The notes beneath the pieces are model-generated. The model saw only the letters and a program-made list of their open reading frames with translations, was not told where the DNA came from and made no database searches. A program made the position numbers and the translations under genes. A stretch of DNA of 64,000 bases, taken from contig CAVSHB010000001.1 of assembly GCA_963727775.1 (NCBI GenBank), positions 288,001 to 352,000 of the forward strand, written 5' to 3'. Of the stretch, positions 2,922-57,466 are shown in pieces. The number at the start of each line of letters is the position of its first letter. Position 1 is the first letter of the stretch. The DNA is from an uncultured Nitrospiraceae bacterium. GTDB taxonomy: Bacteria > Nitrospirota > Thermodesulfovibrionia > Thermodesulfovibrionales > SM23-35.

Positions 2922-2957
2922 AACGAGACTCTTTTGAACGTATGGAAACAGGATAGC

Positions 2958-3665
2958 ATGTCAGAGGATAACGGACTAATTTTGCTGATCGAAGATGAGC
3001 CCCAGATGCGGCGTTTCCTCCGCATTACTTTGCAAGGCCACGGCTATCGGCTCGTTGAAGCTGACACAGGAGAAGAGGGATTGCAGCAGGCCATAACCCG
3101 AAATCCCGATATCGTACTCCTCGACCTTGGTTTGCCCGATATAGACGGGATTGAGGTTGCGAAAAGGTTTCGTGAGTGGAGTGAAGTGCTGCCGATCATA
3201 GTCATTTCCGCTCGGGAGCAGGAAGAAGATAAGATCAAGGCACTCGATGCGGGTGCCGACGACTATCTTACCAAACCATTTGGAGCCGGCGAGCTGCTCG
3301 CCCGAATACGTGTAGCCCTCCGTCACAGGGTCATGCAGCAGTCGGTTCAAAAAGACCCGGAGTTCACTCTGGGGGACCTCAGGGTGGATCTCGCAAAAAG
3401 GCGGGTATTTGTGAAAGATAAAGAGATCCATTTGACACCCATAGAATATCGGCTCCTGACCGTGTTAATTAAGAATGCCGGCAATGTTGTCACCCATACT
3501 CACCTTCTGAAGGAAGTATGGGGGCCACCGTATATAGGCCAGACTGAGTACCTTCGAGTATATATGGCACAACTCCGGCGTAAGCTCGAAGAAGATCCTG
3601 CGCAACCCAAGTTTTTGATAAACGAACCGGGTGTTGGCTACAGGTTGAAAGTTGATGTCGGGTAG
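2958..3665 (+). CDS. kdpE: Response regulator KdpE
   Basis: LLDLGLPD receiver, OmpR wHTH with YLRVYMAQLRRKLE, adjacent to kdpD. Confidence 0.93.
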   Translation: MSEDNGLILLIEDEPQMRRFLRITLQGHGYRLVEADTGEEGLQQAITRNPDIVLLDLGLPDIDGIEVAKRFREWSEVLPIIVISAREQEEDKIKALDAGADDYLTKPFGAGELLARIRVALRHRVMQQSVQKDPEFTLGDLRVDLAKRRVFVKDKEIHLTPIEYRLLTVLIKNAGNVVTHTHLLKEVWGPPYIGQTEYLRVYMAQLRRKLEEDPAQPKFLINEPGVGYRLKVDVG

Positions 3666-3822
3666 GGTAACAACTTCGAATAAGCGTTATATATAGGAAT
3701 AGCATAAGATTAAACCTCACTATTTAATCATAGGGGAGACTAATTTTATAGCTATTAAAAAAAGAAACCTTCTGCAAGAATATGTTTATGGAGAAACAAA
3801 ATTCTTTTGACAGGAGGTTTCT

Positions 3823-5114
3823 ATGGAACAAGTAGATGGTATCAGACTTAGGGAGTTTCGACAAGTCAAGAAAGAGATACGTGGCTCCGACCAGTATTTG
3901 ATCGTCGGCATCGACGTGGCCAAAGAGAGGCACAATGCCTTTTTCGGCACGGCTAACGGTAAAACGCTGCACAAGGGAGTGATCTTTGACAACACGATTG
4001 AAGGATTTGAGAAACTGCTGACGCTGACAGAAGCACTTAAGGTTCAACATAACTTTACGAAGGCGGTCTTCGTCTTGAGCCCACAGCTAATTACCATAAG
4101 CCTTTGGGAGAGCATCTCATTAAGTGCGGGCATATGGTTGTTTTGTTATCGGGGGCGGCAGTAAAAAACAACCGACCGCTTCTGGATGGCAGATGGGACA
4201 AGCACGACACTAAGGATTCCGCAAACGTAGCCGACCTCATCTGTCAGGGGAAATTCCTCTACTATGAGTACCCGGACCCGAAGATGCAGGATCTGAGGAA
4301 TCTCCTTTCCTTAAAGAGACGACTCAAGAAAGAGGAGCACAGTATCCGGGTTCGCATCCGCAATCAGCTTCTGGCTCAGTATTTCCCTGAGATGGATCGG
4401 CATTTCGGCCCGGCAGTGAGCCTGGCCGTAGTCGGACGCTGTCTTAATCCCTCGGTAATCGCGGGGATGGAATTCGATGAATTCCGCAGGCATGTTGCCA
4501 TCAGCAGGATGAATATTGCCCAACAAAAGCTGTTGCATACAATTTGGCAGATAGCCCCTGAGTCCATTGGATGTTATGTAGGGGACGTAGTACCGTTCGA
4601 GGCGAAGGTGATGGTATCGAAGCTTAATCAGGTGCGAGAGACGATCAAAGAGGTGGAAGATAAAATAGAGGATATGTGCCTACAGTTTCCGGAATACCCA
4701 TGCCTTTTGAGTATCCCAGGCTTTGGGCCGGATGTTTCCTCAAAGGTCCTGGGAGCGATAGGTAATCCCTTTCGCTTTACGAGCTATAAGCAGATCCTGA
4801 AGATGGCTGGCTTCGATCTTTGCGCGGAACGCAGTGGAAAGGCTTCAAACGGCGCAACGCCGGTTATCTCCAAGCAAGGGAAAGCTGATCTTCGATATGC
4901 CTTGTATCAGGCTGCTTTCATCGCTTCCCATCATAACAAAGCCTTTATGACTTATTACACCAACAAGCTTAGAGGCAGACAGAGAGAAAAAGGAATCAGC
5001 ACGAAGATGCATGTTAAGCTGGCCGCAAAGCTCCTGGTTATTGCATGGACCCTGATGAAAAAGAAGGAGCTATTCGATCCAAAATATTTTAATAGGGAGG
5101 ATACTACAATATAG
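3823..5114 (+). pseudogene. IS110 DEDD recombinase, frameshifted
   Basis: GIDVAK, KHDTKD, ERSGK motifs; 1-bp deletion near 4072 relative to copy B (FGLEPT region). Confidence 0.9.
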
Positions 5115-5360
5115 GTCTGATCGAAATAATTCAACTGGGGGCTTCCTGTGAAGCTGTTTCTGTTCCAAGAGCCCTAAAAAATTACTTTGATGCGGAGAGC
5201 CCGAGAATAAGCGTTGAGGCTGAATGACCTCGTGAATGACAATACAGGGCCTCTCACTGAACTTGAGAATTTGGATAAAGGATGATGGGCGGTCCCGCAT
5301 TGCGGAACATGCCGGATAAACGTAACGATAAGAAATCAGGTTCGCTTTAAGTGAGAAAAA
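5115..5360 (+). ncRNA. Putative bridge RNA/seekRNA of IS110 copy A (boundaries approximate)
   Basis: Scaffold conserved with copy B; GAATAAGCGT (5205-5214) equals the left flank and GAATGAC (5234-5240) is the reverse complement of the right flank. Confidence 0.8.
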
Positions 5361-5489
5361 GCATCACAGAATTACTCCGTCGTTCGCAAAAACGAAATAG
5401 GAGGGCTTTGCCCTTTAAACGGGTCAACAAGCAACCTTATTAATTTTTATAGACTATTTTTTTTATTGACAGGAGGCACTATAGGATGT

Positions 5490-5525
5490 CATTCCGCTGC
5501 GAAGTTGCGGAATAACACTTATTCG
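5490..5525. repeat. Right part of palindromic target repeat (left part at 3672-3687)
   Basis: Reconstructed CGAATAAGCGTCATTCCGC-TGCGAAGTT-GCGGAATAACACTTATTCG hairpin; second copy at 50066-50108. Confidence 0.8.
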
Positions 5526-5551
5526 TTCTCGGCAATAGTGCCCTCTCTCTT

Positions 5552-6145
5552 TCAGGGCGTAACATTCACTCTGTAATACCCTTCGTCCGACCGTGGATCC
5601 CAGTTCTGTAAAAAATGGTCGAGGGCAGATGTTTTCCCTATAGGGATATGTCCATACAAAAAAGATAGCTGTTTTGCTGCCTCTGATTTTGGTGCTCCAT
5701 CCACGACGACCTTCCACATGGCGGCTGCAAGTCCGGATCTGTCCGCACCGGCCTGACAGTGTATCAAAATAGGACGAGGCGCGAATTTGAAAACCTTAAT
5801 AAGTTTATTGACTTCAGCATTATCAGGTTCTCGGTATGCCGATAGAGAGATGTCAAAGTGCGTCACATTATGCTTTGCACATGCCACTTTTTCCTCTTTA
5901 TACCATGAAGAACTGAGGTTTTCACCACGCAAATTCAGAACGCTCTTGATGTTATATTGTTTAATATAATACGCAAGCTCATCCCTGTTAAGTTGAGCCG
6001 ACCTGTAAGCTTCTCCCTGCGTGATCGGGTGAAAATTACCACGCTCCGTTACATACCAAAAATAAATTGCAGGTAAAAGAAGTAACAAAGTCAAAACTAT
6101 AATGAAATTCTTTGGTTTGCGTATCATCATCCCGCTATGTCCCAA
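5552..6145 (-). CDS. Membrane-anchored protein tyrosine/dual-specificity phosphatase family protein
   Basis: HCQAGADRSG catalytic loop, N-terminal TM segment; start uncertain. Confidence 0.85.
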   Translation of the reverse strand: MGHSGMMIRKPKNFIIVLTLLLLLPAIYFWYVTERGNFHPITQGEAYRSAQLNRDELAYYIKQYNIKSVLNLRGENLSSSWYKEEKVACAKHNVTHFDISLSAYREPDNAEVNKLIKVFKFAPRPILIHCQAGADRSGLAAAMWKVVVDGAPKSEAAKQLSFLYGHIPIGKTSALDHFLQNWDPRSDEGYYRVNVTP

Positions 6146-6174
6146 TCCCTCGTATCTATCATTCTCTTAATATA

Positions 6175-6317
6175 CTAAGGAGGTCATAAGTAAGGCCACA
6201 TAAGTTGTCATTCCCGCAAGCGAAGCGCGTCGAGAATCCTTCTGAAAACAAAGAAAGATTCCGGACAAGCCGGAATGACATGGATGCTGAACGTGGCTTT
6301 ACTAATGACCGCATTAG
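6175..6317. mobile_element. MITE with TA flanks and internal REP/RPE-like palindrome
   Basis: 23/27 terminal inverted repeat including TA flanks; internal GTCATTCC...GGAATGAC hairpin. Confidence 0.65.
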
Positions 6318-6419
6318 TAACTAAGCTCAAACATGGTCTGTCACCGATTCCCATTCCTTATCGCTTGAAATCTTTATTCCAGTTTGCCTATATTTTGTGA
6401 GGAACTGTAAAGCAATATC

Positions 6420-7448
6420 TTATTTCCCCACCACCAGGATCACAAAACTGTCTTTGATCATCGTCGGCCGCGGTCTCGATTCTCCTGGCGCTGACGCCGC
6501 TTGCGGAGCAAACTGTGCGGCAGGTAAATAGATATTGTGGGTCTTGGGATCGATCGCCATTGTGCGCGCTCCGCGTTGTGTTGCGACGGTATCGACAACC
6601 TCGAACTTGCCCGGAGACGACTCATGCATCACGGTGAGAGTGCCGTCCCCGTTAGAGCTGAAAGCCAACCCCGTCCCGGGATCGAAACCGTTTCCGTCCA
6701 CCCCTTCGCCGATCGGCACAGTGGCAATTACTTTGCCTGCCTCCGTGTCGAAAATGGCCATAATCTTATTGTGACATCCCACAAAGACCCGATGATACAC
6801 CGAATCAATTCCCATTCCTGTAGGCTCTTCGCAAGGCTTGAGTGAAGACCGCTTAGTTACCGTAAGCTTCCGGCTGTCGATTTCTACGACTTCGTTAGTG
6901 TCTTCGATATTCACGTATACCTTCCCCTTGTCATCCGCCGTCGCAAATTCCGGTTTGCCGCCGAGTGCAATCGTGGCTGCAACCTCTCCACTGAAGCCAT
7001 CGAATACCGTAGCATCCTTACTGCGGCCATTGAAATCGAATACCCGTTTTGAGGCAGGATCGTACAAAATGGCATCAGGATTTGTTCCAGTCTTCACCTG
7101 TCCAAGAACTTTCAGCGTTTTCAAATCGAAAATAGTCGCCGTATTTGCCCGCCCGTTGCTAATAAAGCCGCGATTCAACTCGGGTGCCACCGCGATTCCG
7201 TGTACGCCAGGAGTGTCGGGAATATCGCCTATCAATTTATCTGTGTCGATATCGACCACCATTACGTGGATGGACCGGGAAATGTACAGCCGCCGGGAAA
7301 CGCCATCTACAGCCAGATAGTCCCAGCCGCCTTCGCCGCCCAGTTGCAGTTTTTTGATCACATGATGCCCGGAATCCGCCGCATAGGCGACTGTGCCGAG
7401 AACCAGACCACAGAACAACAAAAGTGTTTTCAATGAAGATGTTTTCAA
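6420..7448 (-). CDS. Secreted YncE/YVTN-type beta-propeller protein
   Basis: Signal peptide; GGEGGWDYL, GVHGIA, GARTMAID motifs. Confidence 0.85.
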   Translation of the reverse strand: MKTSSLKTLLLFCGLVLGTVAYAADSGHHVIKKLQLGGEGGWDYLAVDGVSRRLYISRSIHVMVVDIDTDKLIGDIPDTPGVHGIAVAPELNRGFISNGRANTATIFDLKTLKVLGQVKTGTNPDAILYDPASKRVFDFNGRSKDATVFDGFSGEVAATIALGGKPEFATADDKGKVYVNIEDTNEVVEIDSRKLTVTKRSSLKPCEEPTGMGIDSVYHRVFVGCHNKIMAIFDTEAGKVIATVPIGEGVDGNGFDPGTGLAFSSNGDGTLTVMHESSPGKFEVVDTVATQRGARTMAIDPKTHNIYLPAAQFAPQAASAPGESRPRPTMIKDSFVILVVGK

Positions 7449-50065: not shown

Positions 50066-50108
50066 AACTTCGAATAAGCGTTATTCCGCTGCGAAGTTGC
50101 GGAATAAC
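50066..50108. repeat. Palindromic repeat; empty near-match of the IS110 copy A target
   Basis: AACTTCGAATAAGCGTTATTCCGCTGCGAAGTTGCGGAATAAC. Confidence 0.85.
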
Positions 50109-50249
50109 GTGTGGAGAACATCCTATAGTGCCTCCTGTCAAGACAAAAAACATCTGGGAAATTTACTTAAATATCAATGATCGTTATCCGAGATCTTGCA
50201 AGAACAATAGTCTGCCGTACGTCCATCTGGACGATAGTATTTTTTCTCG

Positions 50250-50496
50250 ACGCACTCTCTCACTACAATCGAACTTGATCTCTGATAGTTACGTTTATCC
50301 GACGTGTTCCGCATTGAGCGTACCGCCCATCATCCCTTATCCAGACTCTCAAGTTCAGTGAGAGGCCCTATATTGTTCTCCACGAGGTCTTTCGCCTCAA
50401 CTAAGCCAAGCTCGGGCTCTCTGCGTCTTGTTTTTGGGGCCTCCAGAACAGAAACGGCTTCACAGGAAGCCCTCAGTTAAGTTCTTTTGATGTGGC
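50250..50496 (-). ncRNA. Putative bridge RNA/seekRNA of copy B (boundaries approximate)
   Basis: Guides GGCTTAGT (50400-50407) and GTGGAGAAC (50375-50383) match the element's own flanks. Confidence 0.8.
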
Positions 50497-51789
50497 CTAT
50501 ATTTGGATATCCCCCTTATTGAGATATTTTGGATCGAATAGCTCCTTCTTTTTCATCAAGGTCCATGCGATAACCAAAAGCTTTGCGGCTATCTTTACAC
50601 GCATCTTCGTACTAATTCCCTTTTCCCTCTGCCGACCTCTGAGCTTATTGGTGTAATAAATCGTAAAATCTTTGTTATGAAAGGAAGCGATTAGAGCAGC
50701 CTGATATAAGGCGTAGCGAAGATCGGCTTTCCCTTGTTTGGAGATTACCGGCGTTACGCTGTTTGAAGTCTTTCCGCTTCGCTCCGCGCAAAGGTCGAAA
50801 CCAGCCATCTTCAGGACCTGCTTGTCGCTCGTAAAGCGAAAGGGATTACCTATCGCCCCGAGAACCTTTGATGAGACATCCGGCCCAAAGCCAGGGATAC
50901 TCAAAAGGCATGGGTATTCCGGAAACTGTAGGCACATATCCTCTATTTTATCTTCCACCTCTTTGATCGTCTCTCGCACCTGATTAAGCATGGATACCAT
51001 CACCTTCGCCTCGAACGGCACTGCGTCTCCTACATAACATCCAATGGAATCAGGGGCTATCTGCCAGATCGCCTGCAGCAGCTTTTGTTGGGCAATATTC
51101 ATTCTGCTGAGGGCAACGTGCCTGCGGAATTCATCGAATTCCATCCCGGCGATCACCGAGGGATTAAGACAGCGGCCGACTACGGCCAGGCTCACCGCTG
51201 GGCCGAAGTGGCGGTCCATTTCAGGGAAATACTGGGCCAGAAGCTGATTGCGGATGCGAACCCGGAGGCCATGTTCCTCTTTCTTGAGTCGTCTCTTTAA
51301 GGAAAGGAGATTCCTCAGATCCCGCATCTTCGGATCCGGATATTCATAGAATAGGAATTTCCCTTGGGAAATGAGGTCGGCTACGTTAGAGGAATCCTTG
51401 GTGTCGTGCTTATCCCATCTGCCATCCAGAAGCGTGCGGTTGTTTTTTACTGCCGTCCCCGCTACCAAAACAACCATATGCCCACACTTAATAAGATGCT
51501 CTCCCAGAGGCTTATGGTAATTGGCTGTGGGCTCAAGACCAAAGACCACCTTTGTAAGGTCATGCTGGACCTTAAGCGCTTCTGTCAGCGTCAGCAGTTT
51601 CTCGAATCCTTCAATCGTGTTGTCAAAGATCACTCCCTTGTGCAGCGTTTTGCCGTTAGCCGTGCCGAAAAAGGCATTGTGCTTCTCTTTAGCCACGTCG
51701 ATGCCGATGATCAAATACTGATCGGAGCCACGTATCTCTTTCTTGACTTGTCGAAACTCCCTAAGTCTGATACCATCTACTTGTTCCAT
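50497..51789 (-). CDS. IS110 DEDD recombinase, intact
   Basis: GIDVAK, LEPT, KHDTKD and ERSGK motifs. Confidence 0.95.
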   Translation of the reverse strand: MEQVDGIRLREFRQVKKEIRGSDQYLIIGIDVAKEKHNAFFGTANGKTLHKGVIFDNTIEGFEKLLTLTEALKVQHDLTKVVFGLEPTANYHKPLGEHLIKCGHMVVLVAGTAVKNNRTLLDGRWDKHDTKDSSNVADLISQGKFLFYEYPDPKMRDLRNLLSLKRRLKKEEHGLRVRIRNQLLAQYFPEMDRHFGPAVSLAVVGRCLNPSVIAGMEFDEFRRHVALSRMNIAQQKLLQAIWQIAPDSIGCYVGDAVPFEAKVMVSMLNQVRETIKEVEDKIEDMCLQFPEYPCLLSIPGFGPDVSSKVLGAIGNPFRFTSDKQVLKMAGFDLCAERSGKTSNSVTPVISKQGKADLRYALYQAALIASFHNKDFTIYYTNKLRGRQREKGISTKMRVKIAAKLLVIAWTLMKKKELFDPKYLNKGDIQI

Positions 51790-52187
51790 AGAAACCTCCT
51801 GTCAAAAGAATTTTGTTTCTCCATAAACTTATTCTTACAGGAGGTTTCTATTTTTTAATAGCTATAAAATTAGTCTCCCTTATGATTGAATGGGGAAGTT
51901 TGATCTTATGCCATTTCTATATATAACTAAGCCGGTGCGCCGGATATGGGGATTCGATTAATTCTCCCGGAACTTTTTCTATCGAAGAGGATATGGTTTA
52001 TGGAGCATCTGTCTTATTTTGATCTGCATGAGATCATCCTGATACGAAAATTGAGGCTGAGATTGCGACCATTGCAGCTGGATAGTATCCCAAGGTCTGA
52101 TTTCAGACAATAGGGGAGCATAGCGAAACAGGATGCTGTTTTCGCAGGTTGATAGAGCTATGATTTTTGAGCTATCGCCGGTGTGCA

Positions 52188-52436
52188 TCAGTATCGATCC
52201 GGAGGGCTATTGCACCTGGAAGGGAGCAAATACTCAATCGTGACCATTGTGCCCTTCTTGCAAACCGGGCAGGTATTGATATCGATACCGTAGATTCTGA
52301 GCAACTGATCCTGCCAGGTCTCTGATTTTTCTTCTTCTTCTTCTTTTGTTTCGGTTTTACAACTGCCGATGAGCTTACGGCATAGCGCGATGTTGTCTTT
52401 ACGCTTTCTGTTTGCGAGGAGTCCGAAGTGCCTGAT
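52188..52436 (-). pseudogene. IS91-family transposase C-terminal fragment
   Basis: IRHFGLLANR...CPVCKKG continues FVRIR from the other side of the RIT. Confidence 0.88.
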
Positions 52437-52535
52437 TTATGTTATATATTCACTTATGTTGCGTCGTTTGTGAAAGGCCTTGTTATTGCACAATGTCATC
52501 GTTAACGACACAACATAAGTAAATCCCTCTTCGGG

Positions 52536-55706: not shown

Positions 55707-55843
55707 GACCGGACCTCCTCTAATAGAGACTTTCCAGCCATATAACGGCAATTACTTATGTGTTGTCAAATCAAAAATAATCATTGCAAATTAAGAAAAT
55801 TGACTGACTTCACAACATAAGTGAATACATAACATAAATCAGG

Positions 55844-55863
55844 TTATGTGTTTAAGCACATAA
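55844..55863. repeat. 20-bp palindrome beside the RIT end
   Basis: TTATGTGTTTAAGCACATAA between ATCAGG and CCTGAT. Confidence 0.85.
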
Positions 55864-56454
55864 CCTGATGCGCACAAATCGATGCGGAAGCACATGAAGA
55901 AGGAACCTTCTTATGAACTCATCGGCCTTAAGAGTCATGATCTTTTGTTTATCACCATCGGCATAGTCCCGCCAGCGGAAGGAAACATTGCCGTCTTCAA
56001 CGTTTAGGACACGATTATTACTGATAGCAATCCTGTGGGTATATCTGCCCAGATACTTGAGGACACCCTCGGCGCCGTCAAAAGGCGGCTTGCAATATAC
56101 AACCCACTTCTTATGGTAGAACTGTCCTCTGAACACCTCAAAGGTTCCGGGGTCTTTAAGATGACGGATACCGCCAGGGAAGATAAGATCACCTGATTCA
56201 AACCTGTTTTTGAGATGGTCCAGGAACTTGCCCCTGAACAATGAGGACATAACCCTTACAGGCATGAAAAAACCTTTCCTGCACGATACCCAATGTTTTC
56301 CATCAGGTGACAATCCGCCGCCGGGTACGACACAGTGAATATGGGGATGATCCATAAGGTTTTGTCCCCAGGTGTGAAGGATGCCGATAAAGCCTGTATG
56401 TGCGCCGAGGTGTTTCGGATTATTGGAGAGCTCCATAAGTGTCTCGGAGACTGC
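55864..56454 (-). pseudogene. IS91-family (HUH/Y2) transposase, central fragment
   Basis: LHTWG, HPHIH, YLGRYTHR and RRFLLHVLP motifs; N-terminal part deleted. Confidence 0.9.
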
Positions 56455-57127
56455 CTGAGCGTATGTGGGCTTACTGGTTTTGTTATGCCGGCGCGCTCTT
56501 TGGCCTCAACGAATATCTGTCGTATTGTACTTAGACATACATGAGCTCCTTCCTTTTGTCAAACAACCAGTCTTTCGGACGATATTCTCTCCAGTATTGC
56601 CTCAGACACTCAAGAGCGGTCTGAGACAGGATGGTGTAACGGTCTTTGCCCCCCTTGCCTTGCTGAACTCTTACCATCATCCGCTTGCTGTCGATATCGC
56701 TTACCTTAAGGTGTGCTGTTTCGCTTATCCGGAGGCCTGCAGAATAGGTAATCGTCAGGATCGCCCGGTGCTTTAGATTCTCCATGACGGAAAGCAAAGT
56801 CTTGACTTCTGCCAAATCCAGAACCACAGGAAGTTTGTTTTTCCCTCTGGGACAATGAATCTTCTCCACGACCTCTTCCCGTTTTAACGTGTGCTTATAT
56901 AGAAACTTCAAACCCTGGTAATAAAACCGGTATGTCCCCTTGGCCAACTTCCGTTCGTTCAAAAGATACAGCAAATACTCTCTGAGTTCCTTCTCTCCAA
57001 GTTCCTCCGGCGACTTGCCGAAGTACTTTGCATAATTGCTTACTTCCCTCAGATAAACCTTTTGGGTCTTGGGGGTAAGTCCCTTCAACTGAAGCTCTGC
57101 CAACATCTGTTCTCTCAATGTGCTCAT
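56455..57127 (-). pseudogene. Tyrosine integrase (SAM-like N-terminus), frameshifted and truncated at HTLR
   Basis: KLPVVL, YSAGLRISE and GKGGKDR motifs; frameshift after WLF; fused to the transposase fragment. Confidence 0.85.
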
Positions 57128-57466
57128 ATCCAATCTCCTTTGAATCGATATGCGCCGACGAAGGCCGACGGGGAAACAAAGGAAATTGTAAAAAGACTTC
57201 GATTGTTCAACAAGGGGGGGAATAGCAGACTAACTTCTACAACTCAGAAAAAGGTCTATCTTATCCAGAAAAGGCTCACGCCTCGTTAACCACCGCGCAG
57301 CGGTTTAGTTCTTCGGTACAAACTCTTCATGAGTTGCCGCTTCGCATAAATGTGGAGCTTGCTATATTGTTGTAGAGTTAGGCCTTGTTAAAGAAGGCTA
57401 TACTCTTTCTTGATTCAGACCAATGTGCGAGTTGGTTAAATCCAAACCAAAGAAAGGAGTATAGCC

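Follow-up and report, generated by a model that had tools for sequence, protein, structure and literature searches.

The bridge RNA of IS621 is described as carrying two internal loops, the first for the target and the second for the donor (PMC11208160, PMC11208158), with the 3′ side of the guide pairing to the core and right target on their top strand (Durrant 2024, PMC11208160). For ISEc21, Siddiquee et al. (PMC11187229) describe an upstream non-coding region, a 358-aa enzyme and a short target-only RNA that has its bottom-strand match on the 5′ side of the top-strand one; ISEc21 makes no target duplication, and its comparison with ISMch6 provides a case of natural retargeting. The IS1111 members tested in the same study (Siddiquee 2024, PMC11187229) all have the reverse guide order and enzymes of 330–350 aa, and a downstream region is reported there for some IS110-family members. 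Within the IS1111 group (ISEc11, ISPa11, ISKpn4; ISPpu9 and ISPpu10), the RNA is encoded behind the gene, in elements with a short left and a long right end, and ISPpu9 and ISPpu10 are described as inserting into REP palindromes.

Copy A, located in the window (the whole 64-kb stretch of DNA analysed here), is a genuine and ordinary IS110-family element with a predicted bridge RNA, in an uncharacterised clade. It resembles IS621 in the order of its two internal loops, in the alignment of the DEDD and Ser-Gly catalytic residues, in a right-end TTGACA suited to a junction promoter and in the very short inverted repeats around the donor core. In contrast to IS621, the RNA is encoded downstream of the gene rather than in the left end, GT takes the place of CT as the core, the enzyme comprises 430 rather than 326 aa (E 1e-15 apart), and the RNA has a long-range P1 closure and P3 nesting that are not found in the available descriptions of IS621. 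With ISEc21 the element shares the order of the two matches, the lack of target duplication and natural retargeting, here between copies A and B, but it differs in the position of the non-coding region, in enzyme length and in that a donor loop is also evident. The downstream RNA and the short left and long right ends are shared with the IS1111 group, and the use of an extragenic palindrome as target with ISPpu9 and ISPpu10, whereas the guide order is reversed, a subterminal inverted repeat of 7–17 bp is absent from copy A, the enzyme is ~90 aa longer, and the donor guides occupy a simple internal loop instead of a multi-loop. We note that the likeness to IS621 and ISEc21 rests on sequence here, whereas experiments exist for those systems.

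Extent, recombinase and target site of copy A

Four further copies (B1–B4), 89% identical to copy A, are present in the same genome, where copy A itself is single. The similarity between A and B begins directly after GT (TATATATAG...) and ends at ...CTATAGGAT ahead of GT, and the element ends, taken from these limits of similarity, are set independently; by convention, the GT on either side is counted as flank (Table 1). The non-coding portions of copy A measure 135 nt at the left end and 373 nt at the right end. The GT core is present at both junctions of copy A, of B1–B4 and of a metagenome relative (L092), as well as at 48 of 51 left and 65 of 65 right junctions of the relatives, and near-cognate empty sites hold one GT only. 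As in the IS110 family, copy A has no terminal inverted repeats, is inserted site-specifically and shares a core dinucleotide without further duplication; the longest inverted repeat between its 60-nt ends is 5 nt, where the mode of the shuffles is 6. The alignment of 36 sequences shows conservation of TTGACAGG...TATAGGAT at the right end. At a distance of 16 nt from this end stands TTGACA, after which come GT and the TATATA of the left end, a pattern conserved in the family; the joined ends could form a circle-junction promoter, to which the left end would contribute the −10 box.

Compared with copy B and L092, the recombinase gene of copy A has lost one base near 4071/4072, a deletion that divides it into two ORFs (3823–4164 and 4104–5114), and PF01548 and PF02371 match the two pieces. 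The frame breaks near codon 83, ahead of the second catalytic residue, and copy A therefore does not hold the full catalytic set in one protein. Copy B, by comparison, encodes an intact 430-aa ORF (50497–51789 of the window, minus strand) that scores 168.8 bits against the NCBIfam model NF033542 'IS110 family RNA-guided transposase' (cut-off 140) and matches the IS621 structure 8wt6 with an E of 1.1e-15. The D, E, D, D and S-G residues are aligned in this match, such that D31, E86, D129, D132 and the S-G of RSGK correspond to D11, E60, D102, D105 and S241-G242 of IS621, as named by Hiraizumi et al. 2024 (PMC11208158). With a broken recombinase, copy A cannot move by its own enzyme, so that present-day movement would depend on the B copies supplying their 430-aa enzyme in trans. 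Copy A is thereby marked as non-autonomous, although it carries an address of its own.

The half-sites of the target join as CGAATAAGC-GT-CATTCCGC, which constitutes one arm of a hairpin palindrome, the other arm residing at 5507–5525. A 15-mer scan of both strands of the 3.4-Mb genome, allowing at most 2 mismatches, returned 16 hits, not all of which belong to the palindrome family. Judged from their sequence contexts, ~7 of the loci belong to that family, and the target, which the initial annotation had called a dispersed palindrome, is indeed dispersed but is low-copy, being confined to these few loci of a small family. No exact empty A site is present among the hits of this genome-wide scan, and 5 sites are one base off the A target, all of them unoccupied. 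The activity of copy A today is doubtful, given that its recombinase is a pseudogene and that the genome holds no exact empty A site. An uninterrupted site is seen in a DNA contig (X2), where CGAATAAGC directly precedes GTCATTCC...; this instance is weak, as it is a 9-letter loose end at the end of the contig.

Table 1. Positions, within the window, of the features of copy A and of its sister copy B2.
Feature	Position	Strand	Basis
IS110-family element copy A, 1800 bp	3688–5487	+	self-match 100% and 4 copies at 89%; limits from A/B alignment
Left target half-site CGAATAAGC and core GT, left arm of palindrome	3677–3687	+	same left flank in L092 and L093
Left end, 135 nt, starting TATATATAGG = right half of donor site	3688–3822	+	conserved in relatives
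Recombinase pseudogene with DEDD_Tnp_IS110 and Transposase_20 domains	3823–5114	+	ORFs, Pfam, alignment with B and L092
Predicted bridge RNA, core of transcript, ~180 nt, closed by P1 (5188–5193 with 5361–5366)	5188–5366	+	
Target-binding loop: basal stem (GAGAG)CCC/GGGC(CTCTC), internal loop, distal hairpin GAGG/CCTC (5216–5231)	5195–5255	+	
Left target guide GAATAAGC and core GT	5205–5214	+	exact match; left-flank covariation
Right target guide GAATG and AC (core), would pair with top strand GT-CATTC	5234–5240	+	right-flank covariation
Helix P3, CTCTCACT pairing with AGTGAGAA (5350–5357), encloses donor arm	5251–5258	+	two-sided changes in 4 of 8 pairs
Donor-binding arm: P4 (5260–5272 with 5333–5342), internal loop, P5 (5287–5292 with 5307–5313)	5260–5342	+	
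Left donor guide AGGATG = last 5 nt of right end and first core base	5279–5284	+	
Right donor guide TAAC = reverse complement of core GT and first TA of left end	5323–5326	+	
Right end: −35-like TTGACA (5466–5471) and terminal CTATAGGAT = left half of donor site	5466–5487	+	
Core GT, right half-site CATTC and remainder of palindrome (CATTCCGC-TGCGAAGTT-GCGGAATAACACTTATTCG)	5488–5525	+	L092 right flank identical
Copy B2, sister element, 1806 bp, intact 430-aa recombinase (50497–51789)	50120–51925	−	
Copy B2 bridge RNA (predicted), guides GGCTTAGT / GGAGAAC matching flanks ACCGGCTTA-GT / GT-TCTCC	about 50241–50438	−	

Guides, flanks and fold of the predicted RNA

The guide stretch GAGAGCCCGA...GGGCCTCTC quoted in the initial annotation is located at 5195–5255. 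Its first guide segment was said to equal the left flank plus the GT core, and positions 3678–3687 and 5205–5214 do both read GAATAAGCGT; the second, GAATGAC at 5234–5240, is the reverse complement of GTCATTC at 5488–5494, as had been noticed. The 10-mer GAATAAGCGT occurs 3 times in the 64-kb window where 0.11 occurrences are expected, a count that 0 of 100 shuffles reach, and the third occurrence, at 50072, is a further copy of the same palindrome. The 5′ and 3′ sides of the loop match the bottom-strand left and the top-strand right target, respectively, with the core included, and the left/right target-guide geometry of a bridge RNA that had been proposed agrees exactly with the IS621 description given in PMC11208160.

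Copies A and B have a common loop scaffold and differ in the guide segments, and either guide pair fits its own flanks, as seen in B1–B3 (counted as one insertion event) and in the independent B4. Copy A has an intact RNA scaffold that hardly differs from the B scaffold, the copies differing mainly in their guides, and the pair is a case of natural retargeting within one genome. In addition, two metagenome copies with the guides of copy A were found (L092 and L093), both behind CGAATAAGC-GT. L092, which reaches the right end, sits before GT-CATTCCGC (target CGAATAAGC-GT-CATTCC) in the palindrome. The wider flanks of L092 and L093 are unrelated, and both elements carry intact 430-aa ORFs. At the insertion site itself, same-RNA copies are thus not in unrelated flanks, since L092 and L093 share the target of copy A, and copies with other guides fit the flanks predicted for them.

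This fit extends to a set of 80 related loci, of which 72 were parsed (76 rows, 58 distinct guide pairs). The target loop was recovered by a strict regular expression in 19 of the 80 loci and by an nhmmer profile in 73 (E ≤ 1.1e-9), one further hit with an E of 6.5 being dropped; no loop was found in L033, L034, L044, L046, L056, L065 and L069, several of which are cut by contig ends. Over the 7 nt located 5′ of the core, 272 of 357 positions match the guide (51 non-redundant rows; permuted mean 0.43), as do 242 of 305 positions over the 5 nt located 3′ of the core (61 rows; permuted mean 0.47). Neither the left nor the right value is reached in any of 10000 permutations, a control that ignores the relatedness of the loci, and the tested flank positions played no part in setting the boundaries. 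The fit is imperfect: 26 of 51 rows match at position −7 on the left, and 25 of 61 at position +5 on the right. When mismatches are counted over 6+3 positions in the 45 rows with two flanks, 15 rows have none, 15 have one and 9 have two, while three are present in 4 rows, four in 1 row and nine in 1 row, the last of which probably reflects a mis-set boundary.

The fold was derived from RNAalifold and pair counts on 36 sequences. The 42 proposed pairs are paired in 89.3% of cases compared with 35–45% when the partners are slid, and two-sided changes are observed at 23 pairs, values that 0 of 500 shuffles reach; P4 shows such changes in 7 of 11 pairs and P5 in 4 of 6. RNAalifold unaided recovers P1, the target-loop stems, P3 and P5 and leaves the guides unpaired, and the guide segments are therefore not buried in stems, as might have counted against the original proposal, but unpaired in a conserved consensus structure with covariation support. 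Many G-U pairs are present on the sense strand only, for example 24 at pair 44–65 and 9 at pair 128–153. Single-sequence folds are no better than shuffles (5115–5360, z −0.99; 5190–5262, z −1.61), the shorter of the two displaying the stem, internal loop and hairpin shape, and a scan of positions 3000–6500 against Rfam 15 gave no match at E ≤ 1. Extending the target-loop stem by GAGAG/CUCUC results in 97.9% pairing with 0 compensatory changes in the 4 added pairs, and this extension is retained solely as an alternative pairing. A long-range pairing of 5146–5161 with 5354–5369 was dropped, as it is not kept in copy B.

The donor loop, together with the closing and long-range helices, is an addition to what the initial annotation contained. 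The internal loop of the donor arm matches the joined ends of the element, and its variable base equals position −3 of the right end in 68 of 68 rows (G/G 50, T/T 15, A/A 2, C/C 1). The right donor guide comprises 4 nt and is invariant, so that covariation is uninformative and the support for this half comes from identity. Single donor-loop changes in L050 and L077, which have no consistent line-up with right-end changes, were left uncounted.

A terminator-like hairpin at 5140–5155 separates the stop codon from the RNA. A scan of 3600–5600 for sigma-70-like promoters returned a single site, inside the gene, and none before the RNA. None of the 22 runs listed contains half of the words, 4 of the 22 having been aligned. 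Two contigs from RNA libraries (two metatranscriptome runs of one study), X10 (covering 5151–5513) and X18 (4901–5417), span the non-coding region of 90–95% relatives, and these contigs do not demonstrate transcription. By analogy with the described systems, the RNA would be transcribed, bound by the recombinase and needed for recombination.

Proposed mechanism and alternative explanations

We suggest that copy A is very probably an IS110 insertion sequence with a bispecific bridge RNA encoded in its 3′ non-coding region, judging by its anatomy, the covariation of guides with flanks and with element ends, the helix covariation and the catalytic residues of copy B. Experiments on IS621 and ISEc21 provide the model for RNA, not DNA, as the likely guide, as well as for the presumed enzyme binding, circle formation and chemistry. 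An RNA of ~180 nt would be transcribed in the same direction as the recombinase gene, with P1 closing two arms. The first arm would present GAAUG-AC, pairing to the core and right target on their top strand, whereas the internal loop of the second arm would present AGGAUG and UAAC and thereby recognise the ends of the element itself once they are joined (...TATAGGAT-GT-TATATA...). The RNA-bound DEDD/serine recombinase would bring the excised circular element and the target together, and strand exchange at the GT core would result in insertion with no target duplication beyond the common core. Joining of the ends would place TTGACA 17–18 nt from a TATATA-type box, which may generate a promoter in the circle.

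A more speculative and rather unlikely proposal is that the RNA acts as a two-state device, in which CUCUC 3′ of the target loop pairs with either of two GAGAG segments. Pairing with GAGAG 5′ of the target loop would lengthen the target-loop stem, whereas pairing with the GAGAG found at the donor arm's 3′ end would form P3 and nest the donor arm under P1. If both pairings are used, the conformations of the target and donor loops would be coupled within a single molecule. Such a licensing switch would be undescribed for IS621, and would occur in a clade where chemistry of the IS110 type is combined with a gene layout of the IS1111 type.

A substantial chance, somewhat short of even, attaches to the reading of copy A and its RNA as a dead relic, in which the enzyme is broken, the B enzyme ignores the A RNA and the match records a past insertion. 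The frameshift ahead of the second catalytic residue is consistent with this, as are the single-copy state of A in the genome and the absence of an exact empty site, with just 5 one-mismatch sites, all unoccupied. However, the RNA scaffold of A is undamaged and almost the same as in B, the coding regions of A and B are 90.6% identical in DNA, and intact A-type elements with 430-aa ORFs exist elsewhere (L092, L093); in addition, Siddiquee et al. (PMC11187229) report that the use of a seekRNA can extend beyond transposases that are very close relatives.

The remaining explanations fare less well. Membership of the IS1111 group, with an ISEc11/ISPa11-type seekRNA in place of an IS110/IS621-type bridge RNA, would account for the long non-coding region downstream of the gene, which is the IS1111 layout as described (PMC11208160, PMC11187229), and for a palindromic target as in several REP-targeting relatives. 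Such an assignment is nevertheless improbable, as the bottom-strand match precedes the top-strand match in the ISEc21/IS110 order (PMC11187229), the enzyme has 430 aa instead of 330–350 aa, the best end-to-end inverted repeat is a shuffle-like 5 nt where 7–17 bp are expected, the donor guides, like those of IS621, occupy a simple internal loop, and the best full-length plasmid matches are enzymes of ~400 aa (ISRel25, ISBth13 and ISEc20). We consider it very improbable that the guide is the single-stranded DNA of the element, analogous to the subterminal guide sequences of IS200/IS605; RNA and same-strand DNA are indistinguishable by sequence analysis alone, but the enzyme passes a curated model for IS110 RNA-guided transposases, the helices tolerate many sense-strand G-U pairs, and IS621 and ISEc21 are reported to need and bind RNA (PMC11208160, PMC11187229). 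Practically no weight is left for chance matches or a captured flank, with a fold that is merely a 3′ UTR or terminator structure: the weak single-sequence z-scores and the lack of an Rfam match fit this account, yet 58 guide pairs track their own flanks to a degree not seen in the 10000 permutations, and A and B differ mainly in their guides. It is already contradicted by the guide-flank permutations, by the sites of L092 and L093 and by the donor-loop covariation in 68 of 68 rows.

Family placement and significance

An N-terminal RuvC-like DEDD domain and a C-terminal Tnp domain, both passing curated models, place the recombinase in the IS110 family. The layout of the narrow IS110 group, with the RNA in the left end and upstream of the gene, is not seen here, since the RNA (5188–5366) lies behind the stop codon. 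Thus, the label IS110/IS1111 given originally is borne out in its first half, the guide order and the 430-aa enzyme being IS110-type, whereas the likeness to IS1111 is limited to the downstream RNA. In a tblastn search of plasmids, the best full-length matches to the three ~400-aa enzymes named above have 23–30% identity, and many enterobacterial plasmid matches span the C-terminal third only, with an E of about 0.1. These matches are suggestive of the IS110 group, as a similarity search rather than a phylogeny.

The principle itself is not new, bridge and seek RNAs having been on record since 2024. What is documented here is an uncharacterised clade, to date encountered only in metagenome genomes of Nitrospirota, Desulfobacterota and the like, with at most 30% identity to plasmid-borne IS110-family members. 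For the annotation of this genome, the locations of the A and B copies are explained by their guides. The clade's 58 natural guide pairs, which share one conserved scaffold, constitute a ready-made data set for the programmable positions of a bridge RNA, which comprise about 6–7 nt, then GT, then 3–4 nt. An IS621-like two-loop RNA behind a 430-aa enzyme also blurs the rule that the RNA lies upstream in the IS110 group and downstream in the IS1111 group.

Ends, guides and genomic setting of copy A

The left flank of copy A, an IS110-family element, reads together with its GT core as GAATAAGCGT, and, as the initial annotation described, the identical 10-mer recurs in the non-coding region downstream of the recombinase gene, followed by GAATGAC, the reverse complement of the GTCATTC at the right junction. 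The GAATAAGCGT 10-mer occurs three times in the 64-kb window (0.11 expected; 0 of 100 shuffles reach three), and the third occurrence, at 50072, is part of another copy of the copy-A target palindrome, a family of about seven loci in the 3.43-Mb genome. The genome scan found five sites one mismatch away from the A site and no exact empty copy of it. Similarity between copy A and its sister element B starts directly after GT (TATATATAG...) and stops at ...CTATAGGAT ahead of GT, thus fixing the ends of copy A without use of the guides.

Copy A is flanked by a response-regulator gene (Response_reg and Trans_reg_C domains) and, on the opposite strand, by a dual-specificity-phosphatase-like gene; it begins 22 nt past the regulator stop codon and thus interrupts no gene. 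Its two overlapping ORF pieces carry DEDD_Tnp_IS110 and Transposase_20 domains, and compared with B and with the metagenome locus L092 one base is missing near 4071/4072, just ahead of the codon for the second catalytic residue. Judged from its sequence, copy A cannot make its own enzyme.

Coordinates of features (window positions unless another contig or locus is named)
Feature	Position	Strand	Basis or content
Response-regulator gene	2934-3665		domains
Left flank plus core	3678-3687		GAATAAGCGT
Copy A	3688-5487		limits of A/B similarity
ORF pieces	3823-4164; 4104-5114		domains
Hairpin	5140-5155		GGCTTC-CTGT-GAAGCT, T-rich run
5' guide	5205-5214		GAATAAGCGT
3' guide	5234-5240		GAATGAC
TTGACA	5466-5471		
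Core plus right flank	5488-5494		GTCATTC
Phosphatase-like gene	5552-6145	opposite	
Parts of repeated unit holding B1-B3	50071-50119; 51926-52430; contig 3 near 220777-220825		
B2	50120-51925	minus	own-genome search
49-nt piece without B copy	contig 3, 224026-224074		
Trio segment	52431-55843		Phage_integrase domains
Inverted repeats of trio	52431-52461; 55813-55843		31 bp
Trio in second copy of unit	contig 3, 215054-218465	opposite orientation	
ORFs beside trio	55852-57133		domains
Passenger gene	L053, 2895-3866		DUF3991 + Toprim_2

Guides and flanks among copies and relatives

Besides copy A, the genome search yielded B1-B4, which are four copies at 89% identity, and one truncated copy (P). 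The flanks of B1-B3 are common to all three over at least 514 nt on the left and 49 nt on the right, with B1 at a contig end; these copies thus represent one insertion event within a larger repeated unit, and B4 is an independent one. In the non-coding alignment the A and B scaffolds are nearly identical, with GAGAGCCCGA ... GTTGAGGC-loop-GACCTCGTG ... ACAATA-AGGGCCTCTC common to both; the two intervening segments differ. Copy A pairs the guides GAATAAGC-GT and GAATG-AC with the flanks CGAATAAGC-GT and GT-CATTC, and B pairs (GCTT)GGCTTA-GT and GGAGA-AC with the left flank ACCGGCTTA-GT and the right flank GT-TCTCC in B1-B3 or GT-TCTCT in B4. P combines the 3' guide GAAGA-AC with a GT-TCTAC right flank.

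When the intact 430-aa B protein was used as query, 196 out of 239 candidate stretches were confirmed and 80 loci kept, at 52-85% identity, from Nitrospirota, Thermodesulfovibrionales, Desulfobacterota and other metagenome genomes. A profile detected the target loop in 73 of these, with guides parsable in 72. Together with four own-genome rows, the resulting 76 rows hold 58 distinct guide pairs, the 5' guide ending in GT in 72 and the 3' guide ending in AC in all 76. The ends of the relatives were set by the conserved motifs GT-TATATAT.. and ..TATAGGAT-GT, and only flank positions outside these motifs were compared. Over the 7 nt preceding the core, the left flank matches the 5' guide at 272/357 positions (in 51 non-redundant rows, with a permuted mean of 0.43); over the 5 nt following it, the right flank matches the 3' guide at 242/305 (61 rows; permuted mean 0.47). 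Neither the left nor the right value was reached in 10000 permutations, which ignore relatedness of the loci. The contrast between A and B, as well as six different sites in one genome (loci L085-L090), are independent of that relatedness. Agreement is high from -1 to -6 and from +1 to +3, and weaker at -7 (26/51) and +5 (25/61). Among the 45 rows with both flanks, 30 show at most one mismatch over these 6+3 positions and one shows nine, probably reflecting a mis-set boundary.

Scanning metagenome contigs with the copy-A loop recovered two further elements, each with an intact 430-aa gene. Both sit behind ...CGAATAAGC-GT in flanks that are otherwise unrelated, and L092, the only one reaching the right end, precedes GT-CATTCCGC-AACTGCCGCA-GCGGAATGAC, again a palindrome. 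Thus, rather than sitting in unrelated sites, the outcome that the initial annotation named as a refutation, the same RNA is found at the same target.

The repeated unit holding B1-B3 exceeds 5.8 kb. The right flank of B1-B3, GT-TCTCCACAC, continues directly into GT-TATTCCGC..., which belongs to the copy-A palindrome family as one of its arms and is cut exactly at the GT expected for an A-type guide; the 49-nt piece is also present once without a B copy. The unit includes a 3.4-kb segment in which three tyrosine-recombinase genes (331, 314 and 428 aa) overlap in tandem between inverted repeats. We take this segment to resemble 'recombinase in trio' elements; it lies in opposite orientation in the unit's second copy and could be invertible or independently inserted. 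Two ORFs beside it give the appearance of a nest of mobile elements: one of 194 aa has a Y2_Tnp (IS91-type) domain, and the other, of 200 aa, combines an integrase SAM-like domain with a partial Phage_integrase domain. In L053, a 323-aa passenger gene separates the bridge RNA from the recombinase gene, and likewise, judged by loop position, in L051 and L057; some relatives thus carry internal cargo.

Predicted structure, donor loop and source of the RNA

In an alignment of 36 sequences, RNAalifold alone recovers the closing helix P1, both target-loop stems, the distal donor-arm stem P5, and P3, which pairs the target loop's 3' flank with the donor arm's 3' end. The guide segments are unpaired in this consensus, and the concern that they might be buried in stems is not borne out. 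Adding the donor-arm basal stem P4 gives a full model of 42 pairs that is 89.3% paired; sliding the partners by 1-3 columns lowers this to 35-45%. Changes on both sides occur in 23 of the 42 pairs (including P1 7/7, P3 4/8, P4 7/11, P5 4/6), and none of 500 shuffles attains these figures. The target-loop stems scarcely vary, reflecting strong conservation, so their variation is uninformative on pairing either way. An alternative to P3, in which a target-loop stem is lengthened by GAGAG/CUCUC, reaches 97.9% pairing and shows no compensatory change across the four pairs that it adds. Frequent G-U pairs on the gene-sense strand assign the structure to that strand.

The 5' side of the donor loop reads ..GGATAA(A/G)G-N-ATG.., and its 3' side reads ..CCGGATAA..NN-TAAC... 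N equals right-end position -3 (TATAG-N-AT) in 68/68 rows (G/G 50, T/T 15, A/A 2, C/C 1), and the reverse complement of TAAC spells the core GT followed by the TA that opens the left end. Together with the target-loop matches, this suggests that the predicted RNA reads the joined ends as well as the target, the defining trait of a bridge RNA.

A sigma-70 scan of window 3600-5600 found no promoter-like site ahead of the predicted RNA, and in a circular form TTGACA and a TATATA-type box at the left end would be 17-18 nt apart; the simplest source of the RNA would then be read-through from the recombinase gene. The B copies retain the hairpin that separates the recombinase stop codon from the bridge RNA, with G-T changed to G-C; it could serve as a terminator, as a processing site or as a 5' stem of the RNA. 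In the search for transcripts, none of the 22 runs listed contains half of the sampled words; contigs of two metatranscriptome runs from one study span the non-coding region in relatives at 90-95% identity, which does not demonstrate transcription.

Comparison with IS110 and IS1111 systems

The B enzyme passes NCBIfam NF033542, and in its alignment to the IS621 structure 8wt6 (E 1.1e-15) the five catalytic residues named in PMC11208158 are all in place; the nearest plasmid-borne IS110-family members are only 23-30% identical to it. According to Durrant et al. (PMC11208160), all four bridge-RNA pairings include the core, the RNA lies at the left end in IS110-group and the right end in IS1111-group elements, and inverted repeats are subterminal and 7-17 bp in IS1111 but only 2-3 bp in IS110. 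Siddiquee et al. (PMC11187229) place the top-strand match 5' of the bottom-strand match in IS1111 members and the reverse in ISEc21, an IS110 member, give enzyme lengths of 330-350 aa for IS1111 and 395-455 aa for one IS110 subgroup, and note a downstream non-coding region in some IS110-family members. The copy A clade thus resembles the IS1111 group in the downstream position of its predicted RNA, but differs in its 430-aa enzyme and bottom-then-top order, the latter common to ISEc21. Between the ends of copy A, the best inverted repeat is 5 nt, not above shuffles. The bridge-RNA reading of the guides proposed initially is upheld by the tracking of guides and flanks, the guide order and the donor loop, and the sequence comparisons support copy A as carrying a predicted bridge RNA of an undescribed IS110-family clade. 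Its RNA position, match order, enzyme length and inverted-repeat result point to an IS621/ISEc21-like mode of working within an IS1111 gene layout.
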